From: a virus
Taxonomy: Duplodnaviria; Caudoviricetes
Direction: 5' to 3' (one strand)
Virus record (IMG/VR): IMGVR_UViG_3300028591_000103
Span: 1 to 64,000 of that record
DNA length: 64,000 nucleotides
The notes below the pieces were generated by a model, which saw only the letters and a list, made by a program, of their open reading frames with translations, was not told the origin of the DNA and searched no databases. Made by a program: the position numbers and the translations under genes. Of the stretch, positions 20,859 through 60,837 are shown one piece after another; position 1 is the first letter of the stretch; every line of letters begins with the position of its first letter.

Positions 20859-20915
20859 ACATATTACTCCGAGATAAGTCTCATAAGGGACTAATACATC
20901 AAAGGAGTGAAAAAT

Positions 20916-21869
20916 ATGTTAAAGAAATTCAAACCTCGGTTCACAAAACCGGAACGTGGAAACCCATTCTACAACACAATCACCAATGGAGGGTACTCAA
21001 CTGCCATTGTTGGTTGTCCAACCGATCCGGATTGTAATGTGCTCGCGAACTGTGTTGGGTATGCTTTCGGCAGATTCAACGAGATTTCCAACAATACAAA
21101 GATGACTTTGTTGGAACCTCGGAATGCTGAAAAGTTCTACGACATTGCACTTGCACAAGGTTTGACTGTTGACCAGAAACCGAGAATTGGTTCTGTTATG
21201 GTATGGCAGAAAGGACCGACACGTGATCCATCTGGAAAAGATGGTGCGGGACATGTTGCTGTTGTCGAGCAAGTCGTCAGTGAAACAGAAGTCATCACAT
21301 CCGAATCCGGTTATGGTTGTGCATCACCTTTCTGGACACAGACCAGAAAGAAAGCAGATGGAAACTGGGGAGCTGGTGGTGATTACAAGTTCCTTGGATT
21401 TATTCATCATCCGGAAATCGATGCAAATACGCAAATCGATACTGGTGGAGACACACCTGTACAACCGTATCTGGTAATGCTGACTGCAGGCACTCCGATT
21501 TATTCCATCAATGGAAAAGTTGTTGTTCAGGTTGGAACAATCACACAGACAACGAAATACACGATCGTTGACGAAACTGTTATCGACGATAAGAAGTATG
21601 GTAAGTTGAAGTCTGGAGCCGGATGGGTAATTCTCGGAGAAGAACCTGCACCCACACCTCCGTCTACTTTGAAAGAGGGAGACAGTGGCGATGATGTCAA
21701 GAAACTCCAAGAGAAATTGATATCACTCGGATTCATGTCCAAGGGTGAGAACGATGGTGTTTATGGAAAACTCACATTCTCCGGTGTTGCTGGATATCAG
21801 CTGAAGAGTGGTCTGAAAGCAGACGGTGTTGCTGGACCTGCAACATTGAAATCTCTGAATCTGATTTAA
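20916..21869 (+). CDS. Endolysin: CHAP domain + SH3-like module + peptidoglycan-binding domain
   Basis: NCVGYA...GHVAVVE...SES CHAP motifs; YGKLKSGAGW; LKEGDSGDDVKKLQ...DGVYG...DGVAGPAT PG_binding_1 pattern. Confidence 0.9.
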   Translation: MLKKFKPRFTKPERGNPFYNTITNGGYSTAIVGCPTDPDCNVLANCVGYAFGRFNEISNNTKMTLLEPRNAEKFYDIALAQGLTVDQKPRIGSVMVWQKGPTRDPSGKDGAGHVAVVEQVVSETEVITSESGYGCASPFWTQTRKKADGNWGAGGDYKFLGFIHHPEIDANTQIDTGGDTPVQPYLVMLTAGTPIYSINGKVVVQVGTITQTTKYTIVDETVIDDKKYGKLKSGAGWVILGEEPAPTPPSTLKEGDSGDDVKKLQEKLISLGFMSKGENDGVYGKLTFSGVAGYQLKSGLKADGVAGPATLKSLNLI

Positions 21870-24900: not shown

Positions 24901-27900
24901 CTTGAATCGCTGCAGACATTGTACCAGAACAGTCCGGACGAATCTTTCTTGTATGACCAGATCGTGTTGTGATTGGTTTATCCCACACCAAGTTGCTGTA
25001 TGTCAATGCAGGATTTGTCTTTTGATACGCTTCAAAGATTTCTGCCGCAGAACGAATCAGATCTTCTTTTCCACCAGTAGCGTTGCGTAAACGAGATTTA
25101 CTCGATTTTACTCTTCGACGACCACCCTTTGGACCAACATAACGGATGACAATACCTTGATTGTAACCGTCTGCCGACATCGTTGCGACTTCAGAATCAG
25201 TCATGGATGGATCTTCATCCGGCATACATCCATGCGATAAATAATATTTAGCAAGTTTAAGGCTACGTGCTTCCTGTTGATTATCTCCGAGCGGGTTACT
25301 ACCATTGAAACCATACCAGTTACCATTCCAACAATATGCTGCCATGTGGGCATGCCATGCCAGAGTATCATCATGACAGTTTATTGCCTGAGATGGTAAT
25401 GAAATATCACCTGGTTGATAGTCACTTGGGTTCTTAAGAATAACCCAATCTTCAGATTTTGTTCCATCTCGATTAAAAATATTCGGATGTCCATCGGCGT
25501 TTTCAAGACCCCAACCGTTGTTCTTTCCGTTTGCAGAAATCATTCCGACATCACCTTGATACGTGTCGGTATATGGCTTACCACCAGACGGAAGATAATA
25601 ACCCATACGTTTCACGATTGCTGCCTGTGTACCAGTACACATCATAGAAACTTGGTCGATTGTAAAGCCATCATCAAATGTAACATTACTGATCCATGCA
25701 CCATGTGCTGAACTGGTAGCATGATCCTTAGCAGCTTTTTCGATTGCAACGAATGTTTCTGCGGCTGCTGTCAGAATGTCACCAGCTTCTCCAGTGTAAT
25801 AGTATCCGTCTTCATCATAGTATTCATCATCACCATAATCAAGTGAATCAAACCAGTTACCCATGATTTGTTCGAAGTCACCATACTTGACCTCATCTGC
25901 AGCAGATGATGAAGATTTCATGAAGGATGACATAATACCGTCTTCATTCATCGCATCATTGATAACAGATGTTGCACCAGCGTCTGAACCATCAGCAATT
26001 GATTTTACTTTGGTTAATACTTCTTCTTTTGCTGCTTGTGCCCAATACTTCATCTTTTCCTTCTCATATCTTTGACGATATGATTGATCAGATTCTTCAT
26101 GGAACTGACTTTTTCCTTGGGCATTCTTGAATAATTCGAAAGCTCTATCATCGATTTTCTTCTGTTCCTCTTCTGTCAAACCAGAAGCATCGATTACAGC
26201 TTGATTGAAATCTTCTTTTCCTTTCGCTTTCTCGAGTTTTGTTTCCAGGTCATCCGATCCTGCTGAAGTAAACATGGAGATGATACCAGTTCCAATACTC
26301 TTCAAACGGGACAACGATTCCTGAACATCCTCGTCAAATTTGTATGGTGCCTTCTCATCACCGGAACCAATTATACCCTCCATCGGTGAACCATGATATT
26401 CTTCCGGTTGTGCAACCTTTTTGTTCAATTCCTTTTCTGCGGAATCAGGATTTCCTTCAGCTTCAGCAACTGTTGTAAGTGTTCCTATCATATGTCCAGC
26501 CAATTCGACACTCTTCTGCATACCGGACTTTATGTTCTGAGCACCCGACGTGGTCATGTTCTTGCCCATATCAAATAATTTCTTACCTGTCTCAATTGTA
26601 CTGTCACTATGAGCAAACCATTTTACCAGAACACCGACAGCAATTAAATTTGCTCCAATTCCAGTAATGATAACACCCATGCCTACTTGAACAATTCCCA
26701 TGATAATCTCGAGCGTATTTCCGATTACTTGCAAGATAGGTACGATGACTGTTTGAAGAACTGCTGTGAGAGGAACGATCAGAATGTCAACCAATCCTGT
26801 TATCATTTCTAAGATTGGTTCAAGGACCTTCATAATCTGTTCAAGCAACGGACCGATCGTCTCTAGTATCGGTTTTATAAATTCGATAACAGTTTCTGCG
26901 ATTTGAACGATATAATCCATAATTTGTCTTAATACATTTGCCACTGTTTTCATGAGTGGTTTAATTGCCTTATACAAACTCTGGAAAGCTTTGTTCAAAG
27001 GCTGTAAAGCTGTTTTCAAAACTTTCATTCCGAGATCCATGATTTTCTTGACAGCGGTCAATGACATTACAACCGTCAAAACAGCCTTTGCAATTCCTGC
27101 AAGAATACTCGTAATTCCTCCAAGAATCTTACCAAGATCAAATCCCAAACCCTTTGTCTTTTTTGTTGCTTTTTTCTTCTTTGCAGCTTCTTGTTTTTGG
27201 CGTTCATCCGCTTCAGCTTCAGCAACACCGCCAAACCATTTCGAGATCGATGAAGCCAGATCATCGAGAGCTTTCACAAATGAAGCAAACACTGATGTTG
27301 CATACGGCTGCTTCAATAAATCATTAACAGCATCAGACTTTTGATCAGCCAATGATGATGCAACGATTTTTGAATGTGAACCGATCTTCTTATCAAACGC
27401 ATCAACAAATCCTTGGCCGAATTCAGTCTTTGATAATGATTCTTTCAATTTATCAAATGCTTTCGACGATTTCTTTGTTGATGATTGTCTTGATTGTAAT
27501 GCGGACTCATCCAATGATTCCATTGTAGGTGTATCAGAAGACTCTTTCGATTTACCAAATCGATCTTTGATTCTTTCTCCAATACCTTTGAATCCTTCCA
27601 TCATGACTTCTTTTCCACGTTTGATTTGATTCAAAGATTCTTTCAATTGATTTGTGACGATATTCACTTTTGATGTCAAGAAAGATTTAATACCGGAGAT
27701 TGCTCCAGAGAGAAATGTCTTTGCAAGACCGAAAACAAATAGGAGAGATTTTCCTAATAATGATTGTGGTTGTTTCTTTCGTTTTCCTCTAGAAATAACA
27801 CCATCAACGGTTTTCTTCAGTCTTGCTTTTTGTTTTGGATCATGGACGTCTTCAATTCGTGCTTGAAGTTTCACTTCATCTTCTTCTGAAGCTCCTTCAA

Positions 27901-29872
27901 CTTGTTCACTTGCTTTCAGACTTGCCATGACCTCATTTGTTTTTTCTGAATCTTCTTCTTTGTCAGATAACATGTCTTTCACGCCATCTGTCATAGAATC
28001 GACAAGCATTTTTGCATCTGTCTTTAATTTTGCTTTTTCTTTGTTTACCAACGTTTTTACAGGATTATTTATCAATGGACTTGATGCAGGAAGTGACATT
28101 GTTCCGGATGCGATATCAATGATTGGAATATCCATGACACCAACATCAGGCATTGGTGTCTGTGCTTTTGGTTCTTTTGGTTTATCCAAGGTCATGTTAT
28201 AAACATTAATGCCTTTATTCAAACGCGTAAAGATATCATTGATAATCACCTGTATATCGACAGAACGAGAAAGAATCGATGTACCCATTGATTCTGTATT
28301 GGCTCGTTCTAATTGTGCATAGAAGTCTTCATATCCATTAATCTTCTTATCGTAATTCTTCAGATCATCTATAGAAAGAGAAGCTTTATCGATAACACCT
28401 TCATTGACCAATTGACGTAAAGTCTTTCCATCGTATTCGAAGCGTTTGGAATCTTGTGATAAACGTAATCTCAAACGTCTATCAAATGCTTCTTGTGTCA
28501 GAACCATTCGTTCCGTTCCATCCATAACACCAGCTTGCTTAATTCCCGCCACATCCAATTTATGTAAACAAGAATTAACTGAAGTCACGAATTGTTCACG
28601 ATAGGCTTTATTCAATTGAAGCTTTGTGGATATAATGTCAATGATATTTTCCCAATATTCTTTGTTATGACCTTTTTCTTCACAGAGAATTTTGACAACG
28701 TGATCATATATAACAGGATCACCACCGTTTGCAATATCACTTGCTTTCAGATTGTTATCTGTACTGCGATACATGATATACACATATTGTGATATAATTG
28801 CACGTTGGACTTCCTTTACATCTGCAGAACGAAGTTCGGGTTCTTTTTGTTTTGATTGATTTGTGATATCATTGATATGAACATCTCTGATATTTGAGAT
28901 ATTGAATGTCACATCAATCACACGCTCGAATTTATTTGACGTATCTGTCGTCAAATTACCATGTCCATTGATTGCAAGGTTCTTTCCTGTCAATGCCGTT
29001 GTGATTGCACGTAAATACCCAGGAATTATATTCACAATTGTTTTTCGTGTCATTCCATCGAATATAGCTGGGTCTTTTGTATATTCATTATTGATGTATC
29101 TGGAATAATCTGTATTTCCCCGATCATTCAGATTAAAGAACTTTTTCACAGCAGGAATATTAAGAAACTTTGTCAAGATATTGTTTTGAAAAGCTTGGAT
29201 CTTGTCCGAAATCATCCGGTCTAGTTCACCAAGTTTCGTACTTTGTAAAATGCTTCTCGCAGTGTGCTTTGCAACACCAGACTGATTCTGTTTGAAATAA
29301 TTCATCAAACTATTCACAGATAATTGGCCTTGATTATTGTAGATACTGTTATTTGCAATCTGTCTTAATCTGTCATTTTCACTTTTATTATATTCAATCA
29401 ATACATCCAAACGTTTTGAAATTTGATTCACCAAATCATTTGTTGTTTGTAATCTGGTGATAATCTCGGATGTACGGATATTGATATTCGTTATAATTTC
29501 AGATGAGGTTATGAGCTTTGCGTCTAATTTCTTCTTCTCAATGTCATATCGTGCTTTAGACTTTTCAGCTTCCAATTCCGCAAAATCATCTGCACTGATA
29601 ATGGAAGCTTGATATCCATCGGAATGCACACCGTCATCAAATTCATCATCATCAAAAGCACTATGATCTCCATAATCCTCATCACCATGTTTGAAATAAT
29701 CCATCGTCTTTCTGATTAAAACGTTATTGCGTTTCAATTCAGATACACGAGACGATGTTGTCTGGTAGCTATTCATTAATACATTGCGAATATTTTTGGA
29801 CTCTTGTTTCAATTTTACGATGGAATTGTACGTATTAGAACCGGACAAAAAATCTTGCAGGAGATTCGGCAT
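21920..29872 (-). CDS. Giant tail protein A (tape-measure-like) with four NlpC/P60-like domains and a phage tail lysozyme
   Basis: GAGAGGTGA RBS before ATG 29872. Amphipathic TMP-like helices; four Cys...PGDI...H domains; IYNYM...GAAGMMGCMKYESGL...GYGLTQFT lysozyme motif. Confidence 0.8.
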   Translation of the reverse strand: MPNLLQDFLSGSNTYNSIVKLKQESKNIRNVLMNSYQTTSSRVSELKRNNVLIRKTMDYFKHGDEDYGDHSAFDDDEFDDGVHSDGYQASIISADDFAELEAEKSKARYDIEKKKLDAKLITSSEIITNINIRTSEIITRLQTTNDLVNQISKRLDVLIEYNKSENDRLRQIANNSIYNNQGQLSVNSLMNYFKQNQSGVAKHTARSILQSTKLGELDRMISDKIQAFQNNILTKFLNIPAVKKFFNLNDRGNTDYSRYINNEYTKDPAIFDGMTRKTIVNIIPGYLRAITTALTGKNLAINGHGNLTTDTSNKFERVIDVTFNISNIRDVHINDITNQSKQKEPELRSADVKEVQRAIISQYVYIMYRSTDNNLKASDIANGGDPVIYDHVVKILCEEKGHNKEYWENIIDIISTKLQLNKAYREQFVTSVNSCLHKLDVAGIKQAGVMDGTERMVLTQEAFDRRLRLRLSQDSKRFEYDGKTLRQLVNEGVIDKASLSIDDLKNYDKKINGYEDFYAQLERANTESMGTSILSRSVDIQVIINDIFTRLNKGINVYNMTLDKPKEPKAQTPMPDVGVMDIPIIDIASGTMSLPASSPLINNPVKTLVNKEKAKLKTDAKMLVDSMTDGVKDMLSDKEEDSEKTNEVMASLKASEQVEGASEEDEVKLQARIEDVHDPKQKARLKKTVDGVISRGKRKKQPQSLLGKSLLFVFGLAKTFLSGAISGIKSFLTSKVNIVTNQLKESLNQIKRGKEVMMEGFKGIGERIKDRFGKSKESSDTPTMESLDESALQSRQSSTKKSSKAFDKLKESLSKTEFGQGFVDAFDKKIGSHSKIVASSLADQKSDAVNDLLKQPYATSVFASFVKALDDLASSISKWFGGVAEAEADERQKQEAAKKKKATKKTKGLGFDLGKILGGITSILAGIAKAVLTVVMSLTAVKKIMDLGMKVLKTALQPLNKAFQSLYKAIKPLMKTVANVLRQIMDYIVQIAETVIEFIKPILETIGPLLEQIMKVLEPILEMITGLVDILIVPLTAVLQTVIVPILQVIGNTLEIIMGIVQVGMGVIITGIGANLIAVGVLVKWFAHSDSTIETGKKLFDMGKNMTTSGAQNIKSGMQKSVELAGHMIGTLTTVAEAEGNPDSAEKELNKKVAQPEEYHGSPMEGIIGSGDEKAPYKFDEDVQESLSRLKSIGTGIISMFTSAGSDDLETKLEKAKGKEDFNQAVIDASGLTEEEQKKIDDRAFELFKNAQGKSQFHEESDQSYRQRYEKEKMKYWAQAAKEEVLTKVKSIADGSDAGATSVINDAMNEDGIMSSFMKSSSSAADEVKYGDFEQIMGNWFDSLDYGDDEYYDEDGYYYTGEAGDILTAAAETFVAIEKAAKDHATSSAHGAWISNVTFDDGFTIDQVSMMCTGTQAAIVKRMGYYLPSGGKPYTDTYQGDVGMISANGKNNGWGLENADGHPNIFNRDGTKSEDWVILKNPSDYQPGDISLPSQAINCHDDTLAWHAHMAAYCWNGNWYGFNGSNPLGDNQQEARSLKLAKYYLSHGCMPDEDPSMTDSEVATMSADGYNQGIVIRYVGPKGGRRRVKSSKSRLRNATGGKEDLIRSAAEIFEAYQKTNPALTYSNLVWDKPITTRSGHTRKIRPDCSGTMSAAIQELGYVLKVNGVNPGDEGIRSGTWGIQTKNTLIYDSENATTPSKDWMVLDYAQSKLEPGDITAFPPPPGQLSGHLTMPIVDLTTSPKGLDGGSGIGQSPAAAVAYLKGDKNIPWVTNGGMPAMRKIWRFLGGKGGSSSNNRRAGGKRVSTKRTAAGTRTSTLRSTGNTRKGKVSNTRTTSKGGTNAWIETAAKVFEGYYDAKNGYPTYNNSGYTTFTTRDGQSVTARTDCSGMVTASITAFGYHMKDEPWVCHNTIARSPLENNFIYDDKECTKLSKDWIVKPTSANDMQPGDITSSGGHISLPIVVSNPNSLQGLDAGGTRNLVQSGKAAKAYLNGEKDIPWYWAMGVSDGAVRTIRYVGKGGKSSGRSSGKSSSSKKSSGKRKTVTAKAAKNGKYTSAKMDPIRAGAEVFYYSWIANNKKPLLWNGTSLLNGIKFPDGFVIDKISCTFCMSMMAAIVKRMGYYLPSGGKAYTSTYQGNDFMRATIGGGSESWGMDNSDGRPNIFDKNGKKSKDWKIIYPSDGVQPGDIWFAGRGTNVHGHQPIFKGSGQWLGFNGGRNDSMANSVRLAEYYLENNEVPPASSPSIQSEGHYYDKQTGAITGAPMAFGVRFVGNAKSVKTTGTRSNVKVTSGKKKTKKKTTTKKSSSKSKKSTKSSSSKISGNTVEAQIYNYMTKNKGMSGPGAAGMMGCMKYESGLKPNNLEDSYNSQFGLTDEQYTSKVDSKQESKKNFIYGRYATCRSGQTPGEAVGYGLTQFTSSNLKKELYENSVEKGKSIADVGAQLDSVTNTLKKSKVGNVSLFQKISNSRTPTEANQWFLWRYEAGTGYNSDEAVARAYPWMGMSGINDRHTAAENYYKQLRGSGDAPDVGFVPEFYDPAPMNAFMNSLNNSNGSQFVSPMYIPPLDANPLIDYPMYDEYAQPPVIVNQYTQYTETSVLEYIDDLLVNDYNIEVPHIQELVGQIFDELPDYLEDDDDEFTYMDDLVIQQLAGLLT

Positions 29873-29906
29873 AGAAATCACCTCTCTTTCAATCATAATA
29901 GAATCG

Positions 29907-29930
29907 GTTGGGCTCATATGAGCCCAACCT
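29907..29930 (-). terminator. Palindromic hairpin/terminator between the giant genes
   Basis: ggttgggctc atat gagcccaacc. Confidence 0.6.
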
Positions 29931-29948
29931 CATCTACGTTATATTCAG

Positions 29949-32900
29949 TCATCCCACAGATAAGCGTTCAACTTGTTGTGGGATTCCTTTATCGGAGAAT
30001 TGGTCATTTGCAGATTGATTGGATTTCGTCTGCATTCTTTGTCTTCTTTGCTGATTTTTCTCCCTCATCAGCTTTAACATTTCTTCCAATTTGTTTTCAA
30101 TTTGTACTGATCTCACATTATACGTGTTCGTCAGAATTGCATTAATTCGAGAATCAGCACTGGTAGATGTTGCTTGAGATGAATACTGATTCACAATTAC
30201 AGGCTGACCGTAACCATATCCTGTATCATATGCTTGTGGAATCACATCAGCTGTTGATGACATTGTTGTATTCATCACAAACGCAGGACCCGATGGAACA
30301 TCACCAGAAGCCATGCCTGCTTCATTCATCATCGAATGAACTGTATCCCAGTCATATTCTGGAGGTGTCGTATATCTCGTGAGACTATCCATGTATTCCT
30401 GGTTCTTACGGTTCTCTTCCTGGTCCTTCACGTATTGTTGATAAACAGGACTTTGATCCATGTTGTAATTATATCCAGTCGGTTGTGTTGGTACATACAA
30501 TGATCCATTCGGTTTTACCCAAACTTCTCCCCAACTATTACGACCTCTTAGATATACTTTGAGTGTAGATTTATCTACCCAAGTCTGATATGTTTCTCCC
30601 GCAGCATTTGTGACATATCCGCTATTACCCATATCGATCAATTCGCTTACCGATAGACCATTGATATAGCTTTTTGTATATGCACCGTCATATATTCTAT
30701 AGATCGTCTTTCTAAGAGTTTTAACAGCATCTTCGGAATACTTTGAATTCTTTACGGGAGTATTCGCTGTAACTGTGATCGGAGTTGAATATGATTCCGG
30801 AATCTTGATCTTAGGTTCATTTCCAGTCACCTTCTGACGGAACAACTGTCCTGCGATTGTTAAAGGATAATCAGCAACAAGATATGTTGTTTTCGTTCCA
30901 GTACCAGGTGCTGTGTAGATCCATTCCGAAACTTCGCTTTTATTGGCTCTCCATGTATTGTCTCCAGGTGTGTTTGTCTTTTTCCAACAACTTGCAAGAA
31001 CCTCACCGGCAGCATTATACATCTTGCCATTTTCGATTTTTGCGATTGTCATTGATGTCTTATCTTTTGCCACTGTTCCAGCAGCTGCTGCGGATGTTGC
31101 GTTTATGGATTTTCCACCCGTTTCTGAACCAGACCAATCATATGATGAATCAATAGAAGCTGAACTTGATCCGCGGGTTCTGTTCACACGGTTCAATCCA
31201 GTGATACCACTTGCCTCAGGATCAATCCATCCTTCATCCAGTAACCAGTTATACACACCGACCGCTGTACCGATATATTTACGAGGTCCTTCTACAGTAT
31301 GGATGACTTCAGGCACAAGAGCTCCACGATACCAGTGTTCAGAACCTTCGATCAAGTCGTCTGAATTCATGTAAGGACCATATCTATCACCAAAATCAAG
31401 AGCCCATCCAGATCGTCCGGTCGCTTGGTTGTAAGCTTCTAAATCAGCCTCATCATAATCATTATGTCTCACAAGAGCATATTGGTTGTCACTACCCTCA
31501 TCGAAGTATGTTCTTTGTACATATTGAAGCTGTTCTTCGATAGTATCACCGTAATCAATACTTGTGTCTTGCCAGTTCATGATACCCATTGCTTGTTGAC
31601 CATTCTTATCATGTGTAACATTAAGAAGAGATTTATCACCCCATAGTTTTTCACCACGGTCTTCCCAGATACCCATTGATGTAATAGCAGCGACTTCAGG
31701 GCCAGTCAATCCTGCAGAGAATGCTGTATCGATAAAGTCTTCGACACCAGCTTGATCTTGATAATTTGGCCAAGCGTTACCGGATTCAAGATCTCCTTCG
31801 AATGGGACTTCGCCATATGGTGCATAACCATAGTCACTTCCCTCTTCCCAATGGAAGAATGAGTGCGGGTTCATGATCTCACCGGTTTCACCATCTCGAA
31901 TTTCATAGTGCAAATGTTGTCCGTAAGATTTACCGGTGTCTCCCATGATACCGAGTTGGTCACCACCATAAACGTAGTCACCTTCCTCAACCATCGGACC
32001 AGGATCCTCACGCATATGTGCATACAGGTGAATATCTCCACCTTCGTCCTTTATCTTGACAAATGTTCCATATCCGTCGCCATATGATGTCTTTGCAGTT
32101 CCTATAACTTCACCATCGGTTGTTGCAAGTATTGGAATCTCACCACCTAAAGTGAAGTCAACACCTGCGTGTACACGTCCATCATTCGTACCTTCTGCGT
32201 CCTTATCGACAGGACGTCCACGCCATCTGAACGGACTTGACATCATTGTTCCTAATAACATCTTATCCATCCACTCACCCATGACGGTGTTTGGAACAGC
32301 CGTATCAGTCCATCCAGTAGCATCGTTTTCAAACACTGTCGGATCATACTCATCGGTGTACAAACGAGCACCCTTATCGGAATAGAAACCACTGTCAAAG
32401 TATTCATCATCATCCCAATATCCACCAGACAATTCTTCCATCATTGATTGGAAACCACCTGCTTCAACATCATCAGCAGCCTTGGTCATTGATTCGGCAA
32501 AATTGTCCATGAATCCAGGATTCTCTTCACTACCCAATGTGTAGTTGATTAACTTCGTTGCACCTTCATCAGAACCGTCAGCAACGGATTTGACCTTTGT
32601 ACGAACAGCTTCTGTTGCAGCCATTGTCCAGTATCTCTTCTTATTTCTCTCGAAACGTTTGTTATATTCAGCATCCGTTTCGCCTTCAAAACGAGGAGAT
32701 TCTTTCTCAAATAACTCACGAGCTTTCGCATCAAGTTCCGATCTTTCTTCATCAGACAGACCGGATGCATCGATTTCAGCCTGTTTGTATTTCTCTTCAT
32801 TGGTTGCTTTATCCAAGCTCTCATTGATTCTATCTGTTTCAGATCCACCGGTGAACATCGAAATGATATTACCGACAATGCTCTTCAGATTCGAGAGTGC

Positions 32901-35900
32901 ATCTTGGACTTCGTCACTGAACTTGTATGGTGCATTATCATCACCGGCACCAATGATGTTATTGAATCCAAATGCCGGTGCTGCATTACCAGAACCATAC
33001 AGACCAAGAACAGAACTAGAAGCGAGAGAAGACATCGAGCGTCTTTCAACACGTCCTGTCATCGGATTCGATACAAATGCCGTACCACCAGAAGAACCGA
33101 CAACGTTCATGAAGTGATTATTTCCACGGCGTGTTGTATAATCTGTGCCACTACCAATGACTGTGATAGGATTGTCAGGCGTTGCTTGTCTCAAAGATCC
33201 AACCGTGACTCCGCCAGGTGTCAAATTCATACCCATACTTCTAGAAGCATTGATATAACCCTGAACAGATGTGCCTGCAGAAGGATTGTATGCACCCGCA
33301 GAACTCATAGCTGTTGCCAATCCGCGAGGATCAACAGCACTACCAGAACGTCTGGAATATGCATCTGCTAATGCAACAGGACCACAACCACGTTGAGCCA
33401 TATTAAGATAATTTCCATATCTCGATTGTGCTCCATATCCCCCATAGATGGAACTGTAATCAGCATCACCCGCACCGACCAAACCTTCCATCGGAGAAGT
33501 GTTTAATGATTCTGGTATCGGTGTCCTCTTTTCACGTGTTTCTTCTTCTTTGTCCTCTTCAGTATTTACACCAAGGACATTTGCCCAAGTTTCACCAGCA
33601 AGTGTGACACTTTTCTTCATACCGTCAACAACATTATGCGCACCGGATTTTGTCATGTTCGTACCCATATCAAATAACTTCTTACCGGTTTCAGCTGTAC
33701 TATCACTTGATGTCAACCATTTTACGATTGTTCCAACTGCCATCAATACACCACCGATAGCAGTAATGATGATACCGAGACCGACTTGTACGATACCGAG
33801 CAATATTTCAAGCGTATTTCCTATCGCTCTTAATACAGGTACAACAACTGTCTGAAGAATTGCTGTTAATGGAACAAGAAGTATTTCGACCAATCCTGTT
33901 ATCATTTCCAGAATCGGACTTAATATATCCATGATTTGTTCGAGAAGCGGTCCGATTGCTTCCAACAGAGGTTTGATGAATTCAACAACAGCTTCTACAA
34001 TCTGAACAACATACTCGATGATTTGTTTCAGAACTTTCGCAACTGTTGCCATCAGAGGTTTCAAAGCGGTATACAGTTTCTGGAATGCTTTGTTCAAAGG
34101 TTGTAAAGCTGTCTTCAAGACCTTCATACCAAGATCCATAATCTTTTTAACCGCAGCCATAGAAAGAACCACAGTCAACACAGCTTTCGCGATACCCATC
34201 AGGATACCGCTCATACCACCAAGAATTTTACCAAGATCGAAACCAATACCTTTCTTACCAGCAGATGCAGCTGCTCCTGCTGCAGCACCAGAAGTTGCGG
34301 CCGACGTTGCTTTTGCTGCGGTTATATCAGTTGCTGATATTCCTGGCATTGTCGTAGCGGAATCAATAGATGGCATTGATGGAGTTACACCTGCTGGAGT
34401 TGTAGGCATTGTACTACCATATCCTGCAGGAATATTTCGTGCAGTCAGATCCGTTCCGCCTGCACTTTCACCACCACCACCAATAGACTGCATTTCGGTA
34501 CTACCACCACTTGCTGTGGTACTTGTACCTCCACTGCTACTACCAGCAGATTTCGTTTCCAGTGATTTCACACCATTTTCGAAAACAGTCTTTAGATTCA
34601 TGATGCCTGATAACATTCTTGAGAGAACCGTTTCACCTGCACCAGATTTACCGTCTTTACTCTTTAACAGATCAAAGATTCCTTTCGTGGATTGATCTGC
34701 AAGAGTCTGTGGTTTCATTTCCCTCTTACTTTCGAAAGCTGACATGAAACCTTGACCGAATTCTGTTTGTTTGAACTTGTCTCCTAATTTGGAGAAACTG
34801 TCCATAAATCCAGAACGTCGAGCACCCTGTTGTCCAGGAACCTCAATCGATTCCATTGTTGGATTTGCTACAGTTCCGCCTTGTCCTTGTTGCGGAACAG
34901 TGATACTATCCATCGTCGGAGATGTACCTTTGCGAGCACCAATATTATGTGCAGCATTGCTTGCTTTTGCTTTCATAATATCTGCTTTTCCGATGGATTC
35001 CATATCATTCTCTCCAGCAGGTTCTCCGAACATATAATTCCGGAATCTACCGAAGAGACCTGCAGATTCATCAGAACCCATGAAACCTTCTTTGATCGAT
35101 TGTCCGCCACGAACAATCATATTTCCAGAAGATTTCAAACTATTGATGATAGGTGCCAACAAGGTCTTTCCGAGAGATGTAACAAACGTTTTAGCTTTAC
35201 CGATAAATCCACCAAACGCAGTCTTTACAATTCCCCAACCCCACGTCAGAATCTTACCGAGTTTTGATGAAGCCGGTTTCTTGGAATCGCTACGCTTCAA
35301 AGTTCCTTCCACAATTGCATTCAATCGTGCTTTTAACTTTGGATTCTTGATTTCGGAAATCTGTGTGGATAATGCAGCCATGTCTTCTTTCGTGTCACCA
35401 TCTGCTGCGGACGCTGTCATTGCTTGAAGAACAGCATTTGCAATGTCACGATCTTCTTGATCTGTGTCTGCACTATTCATCTCATTCTGTGCAAGAGCTT
35501 TGTTGACTTCGATGGAGGCTGTTGCTTTTCCACGATCAGCGACATTTCCAAGATCATCAAATGTTTTATTGATTTCTCCACTGATAATATCAGAAACTTT
35601 GCCCAATGGATTTGTTACCCAGTCTTTGATTTGCTGACCGGTATCAGATTGGCCCTGTCCGCCTTGTTGTCCACCACCAGTACCACCGTCATTACCACCA
35701 CCGTCATCTCCACCAGTTCCAGCAGGTGGTGTGTTGACAGTTGCACCTTTCGTGACAGTAGCAGTTGCAGATGGTTTTGATGTTCCCGTGGAAGAAATGT
35801 GTTTAACATGCATTTTGCTGAATGCTTTCTTTCGAGAACCATTCACAGCAAATACATTGATACCGCGATTCAATATCTCAAAGATTGACGCAACATAATC

Positions 35901-37658
35901 CAATGTCGTATCAGTAGACTTCTTGAAAGTATCACCAATGGATCCAAGAACTTCAGACTGACGCATTCTCTCCAGATCTGCTTTTCGTTCAGCTTCAGCA
36001 GAAGCACTGTCAGTTTTCTTAAATCCTTTTGGTATATCTTCTTCTTTGATGAGACCCTGCTCAATCAACTCACCATATGTGAGTGTAGATTTTCCACTCA
36101 CGTTCTTGAGATATTTATTAGCAACATCATCAATCATTTGATCCGTAATTGGACCGATGTCATGTGTATCGTGTGCATTCTGTGCATATTTTTTCAGATT
36201 GTTGTGTGATTTATCAATCTGCTGTTGTAATGTTATGACAAACGAAGTTCTCATAGACTTATCTGTCAATAATTTTGATGTAATAAAATCAACAGCTTCT
36301 TGCCATTCAGCACGAGACTTTCCATCAGTATGATTGCGAGCTAAAGCATCAACAACACGATCATTTATTTCTTGGATACCACCATCTTCAAATGTCTCTT
36401 GAGGTATTGTGACGTTGCCTTTTCTACGGAAGTGATTTATATAATAATACGTGAAAATACGTTGTGCTTTGTTAATCATCGATGAGTCAAGTTTCGTACC
36501 GGACGAAACACGTTTGCCTTCAACATACCGGGTATTGAATCCAGATGTTATAGAACCTCTCAACACATTCGCAAATCCGGATTCTCGTTCTGTGGTAAGA
36601 GTTCCTTCAGATGATACCCATAATGTTTGACCAGTAACAGCTTCGGTGATACGTCTCAAATATCCAGGGATGATATCAATGATTGTTTTTCGTGTCATTC
36701 CATCAAACACGGCTTTATCGCGATTATATTGATTTTCAATGAATAAACTATAATCTTGATTTGCTCGTCTAGATGTATGATCACCGAATAATTTCTTGAA
36801 TAGTTTATTGTTCAATAACTTCGTCAAGAAATTATTTTGTGCATTGGCTATCTTGGTATCAATATCCTCTTGGAGTTGTTCGTATGTTTTGCCACCGATT
36901 TTGATTTTATCGCCGAACATTCCAGGAATCATACCTGCTAATGAACCAAGCATCTGTGCATTTGATTCTCCACCCATAGAACCCATAGACAGAAAACTTT
37001 TGAGCATGGATATGGGCATTGCAATCATCTGTAATTTATCGCTGGCTGTGCTCTTAGCAAAATTAAATACAGATCCAAATGTCAGATTACCACTGGCATC
37101 AAATGGTCCATTGTTTCGACTTTGTTGCTTTTTCGATATTGTCGTCAGTTCAATCAACTTATCGAGTTTTGAACCAATGCTTGTCAAAGATGAATTGATA
37201 TTGCCTAAAGATGCAATAATTTCGGATGAACGAGTATTCATCGTTGAGATGATTTCAGATGCAGTCATTGCAGAAGCTTCAGTCTGTTTTCCAGCAATCT
37301 CATACATGGAACTGACTTGACTTTTTGCAATATCTTTCATGGACTCATAATCCAATACTTTCGCTTTTGGCTCATCTTCTTTTTCATCAGCACCAAATTG
37401 GAAACCTGCATCAAAATCATCATCGTCATTATCAAATGCAGAATTTTGTCCAAGCTCATCACTACGATGGAACAACGAATCTGTGACTTTCTTGAATTGT
37501 GCACTATTGCGAATTTCACGATACTTTTCGACAGCGGTTCTTCCACCAGTCATCAATGTATCTTTGATATTTTCTGCATCTGATTTCAATTCACTGATTG
37601 ATTGCGGTACCAACGATGATCCGAAACCCTTTGCAAAATCCAATAAAAGATTCGGCAT
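29949..37658 (-). CDS. Giant tail protein B (paralog of A) with C39-like peptidase, M23 peptidase and lysozyme-like domains
   Basis: Shared MPNLL.DF start and colinear blocks with protein A; RGCGPVALA...HFMNVVG...VSNP; HAGVDF...YAHM...HLHYEIR; AAITSMGIWE...MGIMNW. Confidence 0.8.
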   Translation of the reverse strand: MPNLLLDFAKGFGSSLVPQSISELKSDAENIKDTLMTGGRTAVEKYREIRNSAQFKKVTDSLFHRSDELGQNSAFDNDDDDFDAGFQFGADEKEDEPKAKVLDYESMKDIAKSQVSSMYEIAGKQTEASAMTASEIISTMNTRSSEIIASLGNINSSLTSIGSKLDKLIELTTISKKQQSRNNGPFDASGNLTFGSVFNFAKSTASDKLQMIAMPISMLKSFLSMGSMGGESNAQMLGSLAGMIPGMFGDKIKIGGKTYEQLQEDIDTKIANAQNNFLTKLLNNKLFKKLFGDHTSRRANQDYSLFIENQYNRDKAVFDGMTRKTIIDIIPGYLRRITEAVTGQTLWVSSEGTLTTERESGFANVLRGSITSGFNTRYVEGKRVSSGTKLDSSMINKAQRIFTYYYINHFRRKGNVTIPQETFEDGGIQEINDRVVDALARNHTDGKSRAEWQEAVDFITSKLLTDKSMRTSFVITLQQQIDKSHNNLKKYAQNAHDTHDIGPITDQMIDDVANKYLKNVSGKSTLTYGELIEQGLIKEEDIPKGFKKTDSASAEAERKADLERMRQSEVLGSIGDTFKKSTDTTLDYVASIFEILNRGINVFAVNGSRKKAFSKMHVKHISSTGTSKPSATATVTKGATVNTPPAGTGGDDGGGNDGGTGGGQQGGQGQSDTGQQIKDWVTNPLGKVSDIISGEINKTFDDLGNVADRGKATASIEVNKALAQNEMNSADTDQEDRDIANAVLQAMTASAADGDTKEDMAALSTQISEIKNPKLKARLNAIVEGTLKRSDSKKPASSKLGKILTWGWGIVKTAFGGFIGKAKTFVTSLGKTLLAPIINSLKSSGNMIVRGGQSIKEGFMGSDESAGLFGRFRNYMFGEPAGENDMESIGKADIMKAKASNAAHNIGARKGTSPTMDSITVPQQGQGGTVANPTMESIEVPGQQGARRSGFMDSFSKLGDKFKQTEFGQGFMSAFESKREMKPQTLADQSTKGIFDLLKSKDGKSGAGETVLSRMLSGIMNLKTVFENGVKSLETKSAGSSSGGTSTTASGGSTEMQSIGGGGESAGGTDLTARNIPAGYGSTMPTTPAGVTPSMPSIDSATTMPGISATDITAAKATSAATSGAAAGAAASAGKKGIGFDLGKILGGMSGILMGIAKAVLTVVLSMAAVKKIMDLGMKVLKTALQPLNKAFQKLYTALKPLMATVAKVLKQIIEYVVQIVEAVVEFIKPLLEAIGPLLEQIMDILSPILEMITGLVEILLVPLTAILQTVVVPVLRAIGNTLEILLGIVQVGLGIIITAIGGVLMAVGTIVKWLTSSDSTAETGKKLFDMGTNMTKSGAHNVVDGMKKSVTLAGETWANVLGVNTEEDKEEETREKRTPIPESLNTSPMEGLVGAGDADYSSIYGGYGAQSRYGNYLNMAQRGCGPVALADAYSRRSGSAVDPRGLATAMSSAGAYNPSAGTSVQGYINASRSMGMNLTPGGVTVGSLRQATPDNPITVIGSGTDYTTRRGNNHFMNVVGSSGGTAFVSNPMTGRVERRSMSSLASSSVLGLYGSGNAAPAFGFNNIIGAGDDNAPYKFSDEVQDALSNLKSIVGNIISMFTGGSETDRINESLDKATNEEKYKQAEIDASGLSDEERSELDAKARELFEKESPRFEGETDAEYNKRFERNKKRYWTMAATEAVRTKVKSVADGSDEGATKLINYTLGSEENPGFMDNFAESMTKAADDVEAGGFQSMMEELSGGYWDDDEYFDSGFYSDKGARLYTDEYDPTVFENDATGWTDTAVPNTVMGEWMDKMLLGTMMSSPFRWRGRPVDKDAEGTNDGRVHAGVDFTLGGEIPILATTDGEVIGTAKTSYGDGYGTFVKIKDEGGDIHLYAHMREDPGPMVEEGDYVYGGDQLGIMGDTGKSYGQHLHYEIRDGETGEIMNPHSFFHWEEGSDYGYAPYGEVPFEGDLESGNAWPNYQDQAGVEDFIDTAFSAGLTGPEVAAITSMGIWEDRGEKLWGDKSLLNVTHDKNGQQAMGIMNWQDTSIDYGDTIEEQLQYVQRTYFDEGSDNQYALVRHNDYDEADLEAYNQATGRSGWALDFGDRYGPYMNSDDLIEGSEHWYRGALVPEVIHTVEGPRKYIGTAVGVYNWLLDEGWIDPEASGITGLNRVNRTRGSSSASIDSSYDWSGSETGGKSINATSAAAAGTVAKDKTSMTIAKIENGKMYNAAGEVLASCWKKTNTPGDNTWRANKSEVSEWIYTAPGTGTKTTYLVADYPLTIAGQLFRQKVTGNEPKIKIPESYSTPITVTANTPVKNSKYSEDAVKTLRKTIYRIYDGAYTKSYINGLSVSELIDMGNSGYVTNAAGETYQTWVDKSTLKVYLRGRNSWGEVWVKPNGSLYVPTQPTGYNYNMDQSPVYQQYVKDQEENRKNQEYMDSLTRYTTPPEYDWDTVHSMMNEAGMASGDVPSGPAFVMNTTMSSTADVIPQAYDTGYGYGQPVIVNQYSSQATSTSADSRINAILTNTYNVRSVQIENKLEEMLKLMREKNQQRRQRMQTKSNQSANDQFSDKGIPQQVERLSVG

Positions 37659-37709
37659 ATCATTCATCTCCTTTCATGAGAATTTGAGGTATATAAATTA
37701 ACATAGAGA

Positions 37710-37761: not shown

Positions 37762-38529
37762 TTAGAAGAATTGGATCAAATCTATTTCATCGAGATGGAA
37801 TGTATTTGTCCATTTTTCAACCAATGCATTTCGCGCATCTTCAGCTCCAGACCAGTCATCAATACGCAATTGAATTTCTTTGAATGCCGATCCAACATTG
37901 TTCATATTCTTCAACGTATTATAGAGAACACGTTTCACATCCAATGTCGCTAACTCCATAAAAGATTCACGACACGAGATAGGAATTGTTTCCAATGATG
38001 GATCATGATCACACTTTGCAACGAATTTCACGTATGCTTCTTTTGGGAAATCAAACAGTTGAATCTTGTTGAATCCCAACCACTTTGATGTTTGTGGACG
38101 AGATGTCACACCTGCATATTTATTAATAGCAGCTCCTGTTGCATTTGCATTCAAAATATCCTGAGGATAATATGAACCAAATCCAACAAAAGGTGTTCCA
38201 ACTGTAAATGCATTGATAGCAGCTTCTTCATCTTGGTATTTGGAATTTGCCAAATAGGCATCTGCATATTGCACCGGAGTCCTTGTCAAAGTTTCTGGAA
38301 GAATATAAATCCCCATACTCTTTGAGAAGTCATCCGGTGAACGCAGATTTTTTATGGAATCGAAAGCTTCGCGAATCCATGGTTTATATTGAGAGAAGGT
38401 GCGAACAGATGTTTGAATAATCTCCTGTAACACGATCTCGGTCGGTTTGTTGAATGGAAGCGCAATGGTTTCCAAACCCAATGACAATTTGATGTCATTG
38501 ATAACATCCGAAATATTCAATGAATTCAC
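37762..38529 (-). CDS. Probable neck/head-tail connector protein
   Basis: 255 aa; GAGGAGG RBS; size, context and C-terminal IQLRIDDWSGAEDARNALVEKW resemble T4 gp13-type neck proteins. Confidence 0.55.
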   Translation of the reverse strand: MNSLNISDVINDIKLSLGLETIALPFNKPTEIVLQEIIQTSVRTFSQYKPWIREAFDSIKNLRSPDDFSKSMGIYILPETLTRTPVQYADAYLANSKYQDEEAAINAFTVGTPFVGFGSYYPQDILNANATGAAINKYAGVTSRPQTSKWLGFNKIQLFDFPKEAYVKFVAKCDHDPSLETIPISCRESFMELATLDVKRVLYNTLKNMNNVGSAFKEIQLRIDDWSGAEDARNALVEKWTNTFHLDEIDLIQFF

Positions 38530-42100: not shown

Positions 42101-44362
42101 TTAGTCCTTGCTGTAATACTTGTTAGCAGCCCATGCCGGAGCAACACCAGTAACTGCAGTACGCTCACCTTCCTCGGTGTCAGCGACGAAGTAGGTGCTG
42201 TACGTGGTTGCCCAGTCAGCCGGCTGAGTCTGGATTGCAGTACCACCGGTTGCAGCGGTGAAGTAGAACTTGGAGGTATCGAACTGAGGAGCAACCGCAG
42301 TCACAGCCTCCATTGCAGTGCCACCAGCGTTCAGCTGATAGTAGTTGCCATAGGTGGTTGCCCAGTTATCCGGCTCAGAAGTGGTAACGGTGTAACCCTC
42401 AGTCGGATCGACCGGAGTATCACCACCAGCGACCGGACCAGCGTTGGAATCCGGAACCAGAACAGTGTTCTTGCAGATGACGCGACCCTGGATACCCTGG
42501 ATAGCGATCGTTCTGTACTGGCTGGAAGTGGTGACGATAACTGCTGCGCCGCCAGGATTCTGAGCATCAGCATATGCTGCGTTCTCCGGAGAATTGGTGA
42601 GGTGACGAGCGAAGCGGAGGTGCTTGTAGGAGATGTGGAACTTGTCCATCGGATATGCCACGATCTTGAAGAAGTATTCGCGGGACACATCACCCTCCTG
42701 ATGCTTCTCCTGATATGCCGGAATGGTGATGTATGCATCAACACGGTTGGAGGATACAACACGGATCGGAACATCAGTATCAGTGAGCACACCGAATGCG
42801 TGGTTCATCATGACACCGCCGATTTCGGTAGACTTCTGAACAGTCCATGTGGTGAACTTCTGGAGCAGACGAGCTGCCTTCGGGTTCGCATAGATAACGA
42901 AGCCGAGGTTGTCCAGCTTGCCCTTGTCGCAGAGCTCGTAGATAACAGAAGCGATTGCGTTGTGAATTGCATTCGTTCTGTACTCCCACGGATCGCCGGC
43001 GAAGTTCGGAGAAATCGCAGTCGGATCGAGATCGACATACTCGGTAGCAGTATAGGACTCGAGAGCCCAGATGTCGGTCTCAGTGCCGTCGTACTTTGCG
43101 AACTCCTCATCGAGGTACTGGAGAATGTACTCGTCTTCGAACATTTCCTGAGCAGTTACGAGCTCCTGAACGAGACGATTGTAGAGGTTGAAGTTCAGAG
43201 AAGAATTCGCTTCAGCAAAGTCCTCAACAGTAAACGGAAGCTGGAAGCGAACGCCGTCTGCGATTGTGAACTTGCGGATTTCCGGATACTCGCGGAAACC
43301 GATGGTTCTGAGGTTGGTCTCATTGGAGACGTGACCAGATACATAGATACCGGTAATAGTACCACAGGAAGTAGCGGTAATGGTACCCTTGATGAAGTCG
43401 ATGACACCAGAGAGACGATCTGCAACGCCGGTAACAGTTTCGCCGGTAGGCTTGTTGTTTGCATCAACAACAGTCAGCTTCATATCAGCTGTGATACCAC
43501 CGTTCAGGAACACACCACCGGTCTGGATATCAATCTGGATACCACCGTGCGGCAGGCGAACCTTCTTGCCGTCGATCTCAACATACTGAATGCCGAAGTC
43601 ATAGGACAGACGAGTACGAACGTTCGGAGTGATGGTGGTCGGATCACCATTGTCATCCAGCAGCCAGTTGAAGAGAGAATACTTCTTGTTGGTTGCAGCC
43701 TGGATGGTAGAAAGCGGGAGGACAGTGTTCTCATTGAGACGCAGGCCCTTACCAGCATTCCACAGCTTCTTCCACAGCGGCTGACCATCGTCATCCTTCT
43801 GGAAGTAGATTGCCGGGGTCTCATACTCCTCACCAGTCTGGTTGTTGACCAGATACTTGATGAAGATTCTCTGCTCAATGTTCACAGAGGAAGCGGTCTG
43901 GACCGGAATGATGTCCTTACCGAGGAAACGGATGTACTGCTTGATCAGCGCCGGGAAGTCCAGGGTGGACAGCGGCAGATAGTTAGCAACGTTGTAAGAC
44001 TCCTGGATCAGGAATGACTGCTTAGAAGCATCCCATGCGTTCTCCAGCTGATCTGCAACCTGCTCGAGGTGAACGCGCATTGCCGGCTCATTGGTCGGAT
44101 AAGAACGGAGCTCTTCGAGAACCGGCTCGAGCAGAAGGGTCTTATACTCGGTCATGATCTCATCAGAATCCATCATGCGCTTTGCTTCCTTCATAACGTC
44201 GACACCCATCTTGGATCTCATTGTGCCGACGACCTGCTCGAAGTGATCATCGAATCCATCGCGAAGACCGCGGAGCTCAGACTCAGAAGCATTGTTGACA
44301 AGGCTTTGCTGTTCCTGGAACCAGCTATCGTGGGTACCAGCACCATTACGTCTGAATGCCAT
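42101..44362 (-). CDS. Major capsid protein precursor with C-terminal repeat extension
   Basis: 753 aa from ATG 44362 (AAAGGAG RBS); most biased codon usage in the window; LIQE|S propeptide site; near the prohead protease; size typical of phiKZ/AR9-type MCPs. Confidence 0.8.
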   Translation of the reverse strand: MAFRRNGAGTHDSWFQEQQSLVNNASESELRGLRDGFDDHFEQVVGTMRSKMGVDVMKEAKRMMDSDEIMTEYKTLLLEPVLEELRSYPTNEPAMRVHLEQVADQLENAWDASKQSFLIQESYNVANYLPLSTLDFPALIKQYIRFLGKDIIPVQTASSVNIEQRIFIKYLVNNQTGEEYETPAIYFQKDDDGQPLWKKLWNAGKGLRLNENTVLPLSTIQAATNKKYSLFNWLLDDNGDPTTITPNVRTRLSYDFGIQYVEIDGKKVRLPHGGIQIDIQTGGVFLNGGITADMKLTVVDANNKPTGETVTGVADRLSGVIDFIKGTITATSCGTITGIYVSGHVSNETNLRTIGFREYPEIRKFTIADGVRFQLPFTVEDFAEANSSLNFNLYNRLVQELVTAQEMFEDEYILQYLDEEFAKYDGTETDIWALESYTATEYVDLDPTAISPNFAGDPWEYRTNAIHNAIASVIYELCDKGKLDNLGFVIYANPKAARLLQKFTTWTVQKSTEIGGVMMNHAFGVLTDTDVPIRVVSSNRVDAYITIPAYQEKHQEGDVSREYFFKIVAYPMDKFHISYKHLRFARHLTNSPENAAYADAQNPGGAAVIVTTSSQYRTIAIQGIQGRVICKNTVLVPDSNAGPVAGGDTPVDPTEGYTVTTSEPDNWATTYGNYYQLNAGGTAMEAVTAVAPQFDTSKFYFTAATGGTAIQTQPADWATTYSTYFVADTEEGERTAVTGVAPAWAANKYYSKD

Positions 44363-44430
44363 AATTGATACAACTCCTTTATTATTATTTGATTTTGGTG
44401 TTGAGTAACTCAACAAAAGTTTTGGGCTTG

Positions 44431-50442: not shown

Positions 50443-50461
50443 ATTCAAACACTCTCCTTTC

Positions 50462-60711: not shown

Positions 60712-60837
60712 ATGGCAAGACCACGTAAAACGGAAAGACCGGAAACAGTGCTTGATGCAATGGGTCCGGACATGAATGAAGAAACCTCCAACGGCAGAGG
60801 TGAAGATGAAGTAGAAGAGGAGGAAACCAAAACATGA
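60712..60837 (+). CDS. 41-aa acidic peptide coupled to the amidase
   Basis: AAAAGGAG RBS; stop overlaps the amidase start (ATGA). Confidence 0.6.
   Translation: MARPRKTERPETVLDAMGPDMNEETSNGRGEDEVEEEETKT

Follow-up and report, generated by a model that had tools for sequence, protein, structure and literature searches.

We analyzed a 64,000-nucleotide stretch of viral DNA (the window), which comprises bases 1-64000 of a phage genome present as a single contig of 151,638 bases (IMG/VR record IMGVR_UViG_3300028591_000103). The source is an uncultured jumbo phage. Two adjacent minus-strand genes of the window, here called A and B, encode tandem giant paralogs, and protein B carries, directly after its tape-measure-like core, a domain whose modeled fold identifies it as a C39-clan cysteine peptidase. 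A short G-x-G-D motif brackets this domain, recurs near the C-terminus of both proteins, and in A occupies the position at which B carries the peptidase. A and B are probably cut into pieces like a viral polyprotein, and we lean toward a self-processing polyprotein in which the C39 domain would cut its own borders, the border before the C-terminal module and, in trans, protein A.

The C39-like domain of protein B

The two genes and the elements of the junction at which they differ are located in the window as follows.

21920-29917, minus strand: gene A, 2665 amino acids, the paralog without protease, with Phage_lysozyme2 at residues 2338-2530 (open reading frame list, translation, Pfam)
29949-37667, minus strand: gene B, 2572 amino acids, tape-measure-like, with C39, M23 and further cargo domains (open reading frame list, Pfam, PHROG)
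26357-27154, minus strand: hydrophobic core of A, 68% identical to the core of B (BLASTP)
33465-34253, minus strand: hydrophobic helical, tape-measure-like core of B, residues 1139-1401, ending in SPMEGLVGAGD (BLASTP of A against B)
26357-26368, minus strand: central site of A, GSGD, residues 1184-1187, where B carries the protease
33465-33476, minus strand: motif copy 1 of B, GAGD, residues 1398-1401, at the N border of the protease domain, predicted cut site
32985-32996, minus strand: GSGN (B residues 1558-1561) of the family-wide C-border motif LGLYGSGN (residues 1554-1561), at the end of the last strand, LGLY
32940-32951, minus strand: motif copy 2 of B, GAGD, residues 1573-1576, in a disordered 14-15-residue extension just before DNAPYKF

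A and B are 29% identical in their N-terminal regions, 68% in the hydrophobic helical core and 46% after the junction, and the BLASTP alignment breaks exactly at the motif, with A 1177-1187 corresponding to B 1391-1401 and A from 1182 onward corresponding to B from 1571 onward. The junction of A reads SPMEGIIGSGD-EKAPYKF. That of B reads SPMEGLVGAGD, followed by 171 residues (32952-33464) and then by IIGAGD-DNAPYKF. An earlier note on this DNA had described these elements, and we found every one of them in the sequence at the position it gave. The note's description of two motif copies flanking the domain in B stands in that both GAGD copies are present, but it is incomplete, as a third copy, GSGN, is the C border shared across the family. 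The columns of the extension that holds copy 2 are gapped in about 140 of 151 aligned sequences and filled in a few close relatives only, and its residues (191-204 of the model described below) have a predicted local distance difference test (pLDDT) score below 50.

The peptidase core and its predicted catalytic residues lie at these positions.

32985-33434, minus strand: C39-like cysteine peptidase core, B residues 1412-1561, with Asn1422, Cys1428, His1518 and Asn1534 (AlphaFold2, VIA-align, Foldseek, alignment)
33384-33386, minus strand: codon of the predicted catalytic Cys1428, in GCGP of RGCGPVALA, present in 151 of 151 domains
33114-33116, minus strand: codon of the predicted catalytic His1518, in NHFMNVVG, present in 151 of 151 domains
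33066-33068, minus strand: codon of Asn1534, the predicted third triad residue, in VSNP, present in 151 of 151 domains

An AlphaFold2 model of the domain, built on the family alignment, has a mean pLDDT of 84, with values above 90 in the core. The top Foldseek matches to this model are the ComA peptidase domain (PEP), PCAT1 and LahT150, the best being 5xe8 (E 5.9e-5, TM 0.73 by target). Structural alignment with VIA-align gives Z 14.6 for ComA PEP (root-mean-square deviation, rmsd, 2.1 A over 126 residues, 22% identity), Z 14.2 for PCAT1 and Z 13.1 for LahT150. PeiR, a pseudomurein endoisopeptidase, reaches the same Z as ComA, 14.6 (rmsd 2.5 A over 136 residues, 14-15% identity). All of the top structural matches are papain-like, and no cysteine protease domain (CPD) of the MARTX/Tcd type is among them. 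When the family profile is compared with the PDB, GCGP aligns to Cys17 of ComA and Asn1422 aligns to its Gln11. The catalytic triad of ComA consists of Cys17, His96 and Asp112 (PMC5481443), and the spacing of 16 between His96 and Asp112 is also that between His1518 and Asn1534 in the B domain.

Profile comparisons place the domain near, but not squarely within, a known family. On PF13529 the window's domain scores 15.4-16.4 bits, below the 24-bit Pfam cut-off. PF13529 is matched by 67 of 149 family members (E<=0.1, best E 1.2e-6) and PF03412 by 20, and a protein atlas likewise points to C39_2 clusters. A Pfam scan of B detected no ATP-binding cassette (ABC) domains, and thus no fusion of the kind found in PCAT-type transporters. 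Two matches were set aside. The top profile match, the CV39L lectin, has a repeated GNxHYLQVVG-like motif in its propeller, which we judged to be a chance likeness to the His strand, and a PDB search with the single sequence returned a 'Pizza' repeat protein alone, which we regard as spurious.

The 151 domains are 40-60% identical overall, and invariant among them are GCGP, His1518, Asn1521, Asn1534-Pro1535 and several Gly and Thr residues. Asn1422, which lies six residues before the Cys at the predicted oxyanion position, is found in 127 of the 151. The earlier note had proposed a C39-like peptidase and had suggested modeling its structure. Fold, profile and the invariant Cys, His and Asn-Pro all bear this identity out, with a model that is confident in its core and C39 leader peptidases at the top of its matches. 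As modeled, the domain is a C39-clan cysteine peptidase and a divergent relative of PF13529. Taken together with the invariant residues, this assignment indicates from sequence conservation that the peptidase is intact and under selection, but the fold alone does not tell what is cut. The predicted complex of the C39 core (model residues 34-186) with an alignment of the A-site peptide scored 0.01; the prediction was run without controls and counts neither way.

The G-x-G-D motif and the proposed processing of A and B

The motif is far more frequent in these proteins than expected by chance, and its copies are found at defined borders. G[SAG]GD occurs 351 times in 118 full-length homologs, compared with 56.6 occurrences expected from shuffles. 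The broader pattern G.G[DN] marks the N border of the domain in 118 of 130 homologs and the C border in 127. It falls within the last 220 residues in 119 and is found at all three positions in 110. Elsewhere in these proteins the pattern has a background frequency of 1.08 per 1000 residues, from which approximately 0.06 copies are expected in each border window and 0.24 copies within the last 220 residues. At the C border, where most homologs have GSGD, columns 1555-1561 contain G in 150, L in 120, Y in 146, G in 149, S in 131, G in 151 and D in 133 of the 151 domains, giving the consensus G-L-Y-G-S-G-D. A conserved candidate C-terminal site lies about 117-150 residues before the C-terminus, at a median of 117; here the motif itself and positions -1 and -2, which hold hydrophobic or aromatic residues, are all that is conserved. 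The first residue in copies of the motif is G, in rare cases A; in second place S is commoner than N, N than A and A than G; and the Gly of the third position is invariant.

The late sites of the two proteins, which the earlier note had also described as (G/A)SGD, are present in both.

22310-22321, minus strand: late site of A, GSGD, residues 2533-2536, three residues after the lysozyme domain and 132 residues from the C-terminus
30300-30311, minus strand: late site of B, ASGD, residues 2453-2456, 119 residues from the C-terminus, equivalent in position to YGAGD in the closest homolog

The ASGD variant, in which the first Gly is replaced, is found also at the central site of two A-like homologs, and the lineage of the window (B and the relative P0003) has Ala at several motif sites at once. 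Covariation between the second residue of the motif (S, A, N or G) and the protease could not be used, as there are too few independent variant lineages.

The motif is likewise kept in paralogs that lack the protease. In an alignment of 19 such proteins, the residues G, S, G, G, G and D are invariant within GS(P/A)(M/L)(D/E)GxxGSGD at the junction; the central site is G[SAG]GD in 17 of them and ASGD in two. Thirteen of the 19 have G[SAG]GD in their last 220 residues, and in most the GSGD lies 80-156 residues from the end, directly after the last lytic domain. In many B-like proteins, the residues beyond the C-border motif pick up exactly the sequence of the A-like partner encoded by that phage (at locus L004, SPIEFSDT compared with TPIEFSDT), indicating that the domain sits precisely between two copies of one site. 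Thus, the claim that the motif brackets the domain and recurs at other borders holds across approximately 130 homologs, protease-less paralogs included, and the expected co-occurrence of G-x-G-D and C39 is seen in the homolog alignment as conservation of the motifs at the borders of the domain.

Given a conserved active site, a tag at both borders of the domain that contains it and the same tag at other borders, a self-processing polyprotein is the simplest reading, and the position of protease-less paralogs, beside a protease-bearing one in all five loci read, fits it. Under this reading, A and B would each consist of an N-terminal scaffold ending in the tape-measure-like core, of wall-hydrolase domains and of a C-terminal module of approximately 120-130 residues, and B would have in addition, directly after the core, an active peptidase of papain fold. 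The peptidase would recognize a hydrophobic residue, often Tyr, followed by G-(S/A/N/G)-G-(D/N), and would cut within or next to this motif at both of its own borders and at the border before the C-terminal module, and the equivalent sites of A would be cut in trans by the peptidase of B. Four products would result: the scaffold or tape-measure part, the protease in free form, a segment of lytic cargo and a short C-terminal segment. We infer cleavage in cis and in trans solely from the conservation of the motif and from the known behavior of C39 peptidases, and likewise inferred are the motif as the cut site, the C39 domain as the enzyme, the bond that would be cut and the timing, which might be during assembly or after ejection. 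More tentatively still, and with doubt slightly outweighing belief, we propose that uncultured jumbo phages of a widespread group assemble their tail or ejection machinery from self-maturing giant polyproteins with a Y-G-S-G-D tag and a protease-less paralog that is cut in trans, with the C-terminal module freed as a plug.

Several observations weigh against self-processing. The third triad residue of the B domain is Asn, where C39 leader peptidases have Asp, and the oxyanion position holds Asn in place of their Gln; papain itself has Asn as its third catalytic residue. The late site of B is the degenerate ASGD. The LGLY that precedes the C-border motif is a strand of the fold, so its conservation is partly structural. 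As modeled, the fold alone cannot separate a leader-type protease from a wall endoisopeptidase, as the tie between PeiR and ComA illustrates, and C39-like domains occur also in phage lysins, where they are read as wall-degrading. The motif itself is a further difficulty. C39 leader peptidases cut after G-G/A/S, and their specificity is read from the residues before the cut (PMC6959990). The candidate motif resembles their substrates in being Gly-rich, with small residues and with hydrophobic residues just upstream, and its variation seems to fit leader-peptidase specificity in spirit. It does not fit in detail, because its Asp is invariant and because the helix signature L(-12)/E(-8)/L(-7) is missing: it is unlike the canonical leader consensus L(-12)xxxE(-8)L(-7)xxxxG(-2)G(-1), and no known C39 substrate has an equivalent of the Asp that follows the glycines (PMC6959990).

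The main alternative is that the C39-like domain is one more cell-wall endopeptidase, specific for stem peptides or cross-bridges, and that the G-x-G-D motifs are uncut structural caps or linker starts. The structural score of PeiR belongs here, as do the phage endolysins, Lysin A and 'Peptidase' entries among the BFVD matches, an atlas cluster named murein hydrolase, the packing of both A and B with wall hydrolases, the membership of LGLY in the fold, and published descriptions of C39-like domains as the lysin domains of endolysins from actinophages and of lysins from gut phages (PMC12821328; PMC3314691; bioRxiv 10.64898/2026.04.25.720813). PeiR and the related PeiW are phage-derived wall-cutting enzymes, but pseudomurein is an archaeal target, there is no profile match to the PeiR family, and the highest sequence identity is to ComA. 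Wall cleavage would also leave two points unaccounted for. The motif is kept equally well where C39 is missing, both in protease-less paralogs (central and late sites) and behind lysozyme or CHAP-type domains. The domain, moreover, has a fixed place right after the core, with a lytic cargo that differs between proteins (90 of the 130 protease-bearing proteins have M23 and about half have lysozyme). A structural cap would also not explain conservation within linkers that are otherwise variable and of low confidence. We therefore regard the wall-hydrolase explanation as unlikely, though deserving of real weight.

The motifs could instead be functional with C39 not the cutter, either because another protease acts on them (M23, the prohead protease or a host enzyme) or because they signal docking or assembly, for instance to tail chaperones or the baseplate hub. 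This reading can point to the M23 domain of B, to an invariant Asp that is atypical of C39 substrates, and to the lactococcal Tal proteins, which have a C-terminal M23 domain and are processed to release that domain (PMC6115969). However, 40 of the 130 motif-bearing proteins have no M23 domain, and 38 of these keep the C-border motif and 31 the C-terminal motif; since proteins without M23 still mostly keep the motifs, we rejected M23 as the general processing enzyme. Furthermore, the motif brackets the C39 domain itself in >90% of proteins, and wherever motif-bearing proteins were present in the genomes read, a C39 domain was encoded next to them. A different cutter, or a role in docking, thus appears improbable. 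Least probable of all, and in our view barely credible, is a role of the domain as an injected effector or toxin, released from or carried by the ejected giant protein, that would cleave a host protein following delivery. Tape-measure-like proteins do leave the virion during infection, and papain-like toxin domains are among the structural matches (9l5u, Z 13.1; the CdiA-CT domain 8ssk, Z 12.1). These matches score below ComA and PCAT1, no immunity-like partner gene was noticed beside the giant genes in the loci read, and motifs at distant sites and in protease-less paralogs would be left unexplained.

Self-processing of A and B, as favored here, would resemble several known systems without coinciding with any of them. 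The C39 leader peptidases (ComA PEP, 3K8U/5XE8; PCAT1; LahT150, 6MPZ) share the papain-like fold (Z 13-14.6, rmsd 2.1-2.5 A, ~126-130 residues), a Cys in CGP context and a third residue 16 positions after the His. Unlike the C39 domains of PCAT or AMS proteins, the B domain is not fused to an ABC transporter and is embedded in a phage protein of a family with 2200-3700 residues, and its presumed substrates are its own polyprotein and a paralog rather than a secreted peptide. C39-like domains of phage lysins (PF13529-type, such as the N-terminal domain of actinophage Lysin A) belong to the same superfamily and also reside in hydrolase-rich phage proteins. They are taken to cut peptidoglycan and have no reported repeated flanking motif, whereas the B domain has a fixed position after the core and a flanking motif that recurs at other borders and in paralogs lacking the domain.

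Tal2009 and the Tal protein of TP901-1 are likewise virion tail proteins that are cut to release a C-terminal wall-hydrolase domain (PMC6115969). They have ~900 residues compared with ~2600 here; in the present system each protein has several sites, and one paralog is without the protease. The Tal cut lies in a glycine-rich stretch, and we know of no dedicated cysteine protease domain in Tal. The logic of a giant protein whose internal cysteine protease frees cargo domains is shared with MARTX and TcdA/TcdB (PMC3153235), by analogy only. The B domain is a papain-like C39 domain with no known activator, and the likeness is one of logic, not of descent. The CPD of MARTX and Tcd toxins has a caspase-like (clan CD) fold and is switched on by inositol hexakisphosphate. 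The tape measure proteins of lambda (gpH to H*) and T5 (pb2) lose a C-terminal piece during tail assembly, and here too a candidate site is near the C-terminus; unlike in those phages, the protein or its paralog carries a candidate enzyme. To our knowledge, phages of the lambda and T5 type have no embedded protease, and the enzyme that trims their tape measure proteins has not been established.

Literature searches (C39 with tape measure or jumbo phage; autoproteolytic tape measure proteins) returned no description of an embedded protease with its own cut-site tag in a tape-measure-like protein, and the phage maturation proteases known to us act on head proteins. If the proposal is true, these phages possess, in addition to the prohead protease, another maturation protease system that is specific to the tail, and a concrete enzyme can be named for the C-terminal trimming long observed in tape measure proteins. 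An embedded protease with a four-residue tag would provide a mechanism for the maturation of tail or ejection proteins, would show the swapping of variable lytic cargo between fixed cut sites, and would extend C39 peptidases from leader-peptide removal to polyprotein processing. Catalogues of gut and rumen phages count C39 domains as lytic 'endolysin' domains (bioRxiv 10.64898/2026.04.25.720813), which may be wrong.

Relatives of the domain and the origin of the paralogs

A HMMER search with B residues 1385-1595 against 1.84 billion representative proteins recovered 145 clusters with the domain, 138 of them at E<=1e-30, beyond which there is a sharp drop to unrelated small proteins. Almost all of these matches are inside proteins of 2200-3700 residues and at a similar position. 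One homolog belongs to a Paludibacteraceae bin, which makes Bacteroidota candidate hosts. Ten of the 133 full-length relatives carry two copies of the domain. Members of a two-copy subgroup (P0004-P0008, P0011, P0012, P0015, P0018, P0019, P0022 and P0023) are single-gene proteins of 2500-3070 residues in which M23 is absent, with the copies near residues 600-840 and 1600-2000 and LGLYGSGD after each. Comparison of gene B (megablast) and of the C39 domain (tblastn) with 50,697 phage records gave no match, and hence no cultured relative among them.

At all five loci in which the neighbor of an A-like gene was read (the window, L003, L004, L008 and L009), the upstream gene is B-like, with GCGP and the flanking motifs. 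In three further pairs the two members come from contigs of equal length. More distant relatives (L006, L007) have a single giant gene that carries the protease. In a quick IQ-TREE search on the tape-measure-like core, the 19 protease-less proteins all fall within one 41-row clade (Shimodaira-Hasegawa-like approximate likelihood ratio test, SH-aLRT, 97) that is nested among protease-bearing proteins. Because protease-bearing proteins fill the whole tree and protease-less ones are found in this single clade, the protease looks ancestral, with A a duplicate that lost the domain. The earlier view of the domain as an insert into B therefore probably has the direction wrong, as the tree favors loss from A. 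Within the 41-row clade, the cores group by phage, A beside B, and not by paralog type, which suggests gene conversion or repeated, independent duplication. We also considered gene fission at the motif, but the shorter proteins mostly start inside the hydrophobic core and look like truncated gene calls, and they were not used.

The assignment of A and B to the tail rests on their core. PHROG tape-measure families match A 820-1224 (E 9e-9) as well as B, and a tblastn search with A 923-1185 matched genes annotated as tape measure in 146 cultured phages (25-30% identity, E of 1e-6 at best). This similarity of the A core is weak and spans only ~260 residues. The core thus resembles known tape measure proteins. 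The placement of A and B in the tail, as proposed in the earlier note, depends on this weak similarity, and they may instead be head-packaged ejection proteins.

Genome context and further features of the giant proteins

Three further features of the region are the cargo domains of the two proteins and an upstream gene.

31887-32174, minus strand: M23 metallopeptidase domain of B (cargo), residues 1832-1927, PF01551, E 1.4e-19
22328-22906, minus strand: phage tail lysozyme domain of A (cargo), PF18013, E 2.3e-17
37762-38529, minus strand: conserved virion protein of 255 amino acids, upstream of A and B, with a weak DUF7484 match and a PHROG 'virion structural protein' match

Upstream on the strand of A and B are also the major head protein (42101-44416) and the head maturation protease (49579-50469). 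The latter gene agrees with the earlier claim that processing of A and B would be separate from the prohead protease. In each related locus read, a DUF7484-like gene of 252-255 codons is the immediate upstream neighbor of the giant gene or genes, and, going by this gene order, its product could assist the giant proteins as a chaperone or be their partner. For A, the protein-cluster record has a longest contig of 217,986 bases, and the 151,638-base contig may be incomplete.

The window also codes for two separate lysin-type genes on the plus strand, one at 20907-21869 with CHAP and PG_binding_1 and one at 60834-62867 with 677 codons and an N-terminal domain of amidase/endolysin type; the phage thus has many wall hydrolases besides those in A and B. 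In A, residues ~1380-2330 (window ~22927-25780) contain four papain-like repeats (NlpC/P60- or CHAP-like), none of which Pfam calls. Each repeat ends in (I/W)R(Y/F)(V/L)G followed by a basic linker rich in Gly, Lys and Ser (RYVGPKGG, RFLGGKGG, RYVGKGGK). In homologs, the equivalent strand end runs directly into the tag (IRYVGSGD, WRYTGSGD), and judging from this likeness the basic linkers of A might be degenerate or additional sites. In B, residues ~637-672 (window 35650-35760) form a low-complexity stretch rich in Gly, Asp and Gln, GGDDGGGNDGGTGGGQQGGQGQ, which is absent from A.

Elsewhere in the genome, outside the window, two giant open reading frames contain copies of the motif. One (G000:C1:78307-84318) encodes a tail-fibre-like protein of 2003 residues (Gp34_trimer) with LIYGGGD 78 residues from its end, and the other (G000:C1:96410-103576) encodes a protein of 2388 residues with VYIGSGD. 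By a rough estimate, ~2 such copies are expected by chance genome-wide, and these two may mean nothing.

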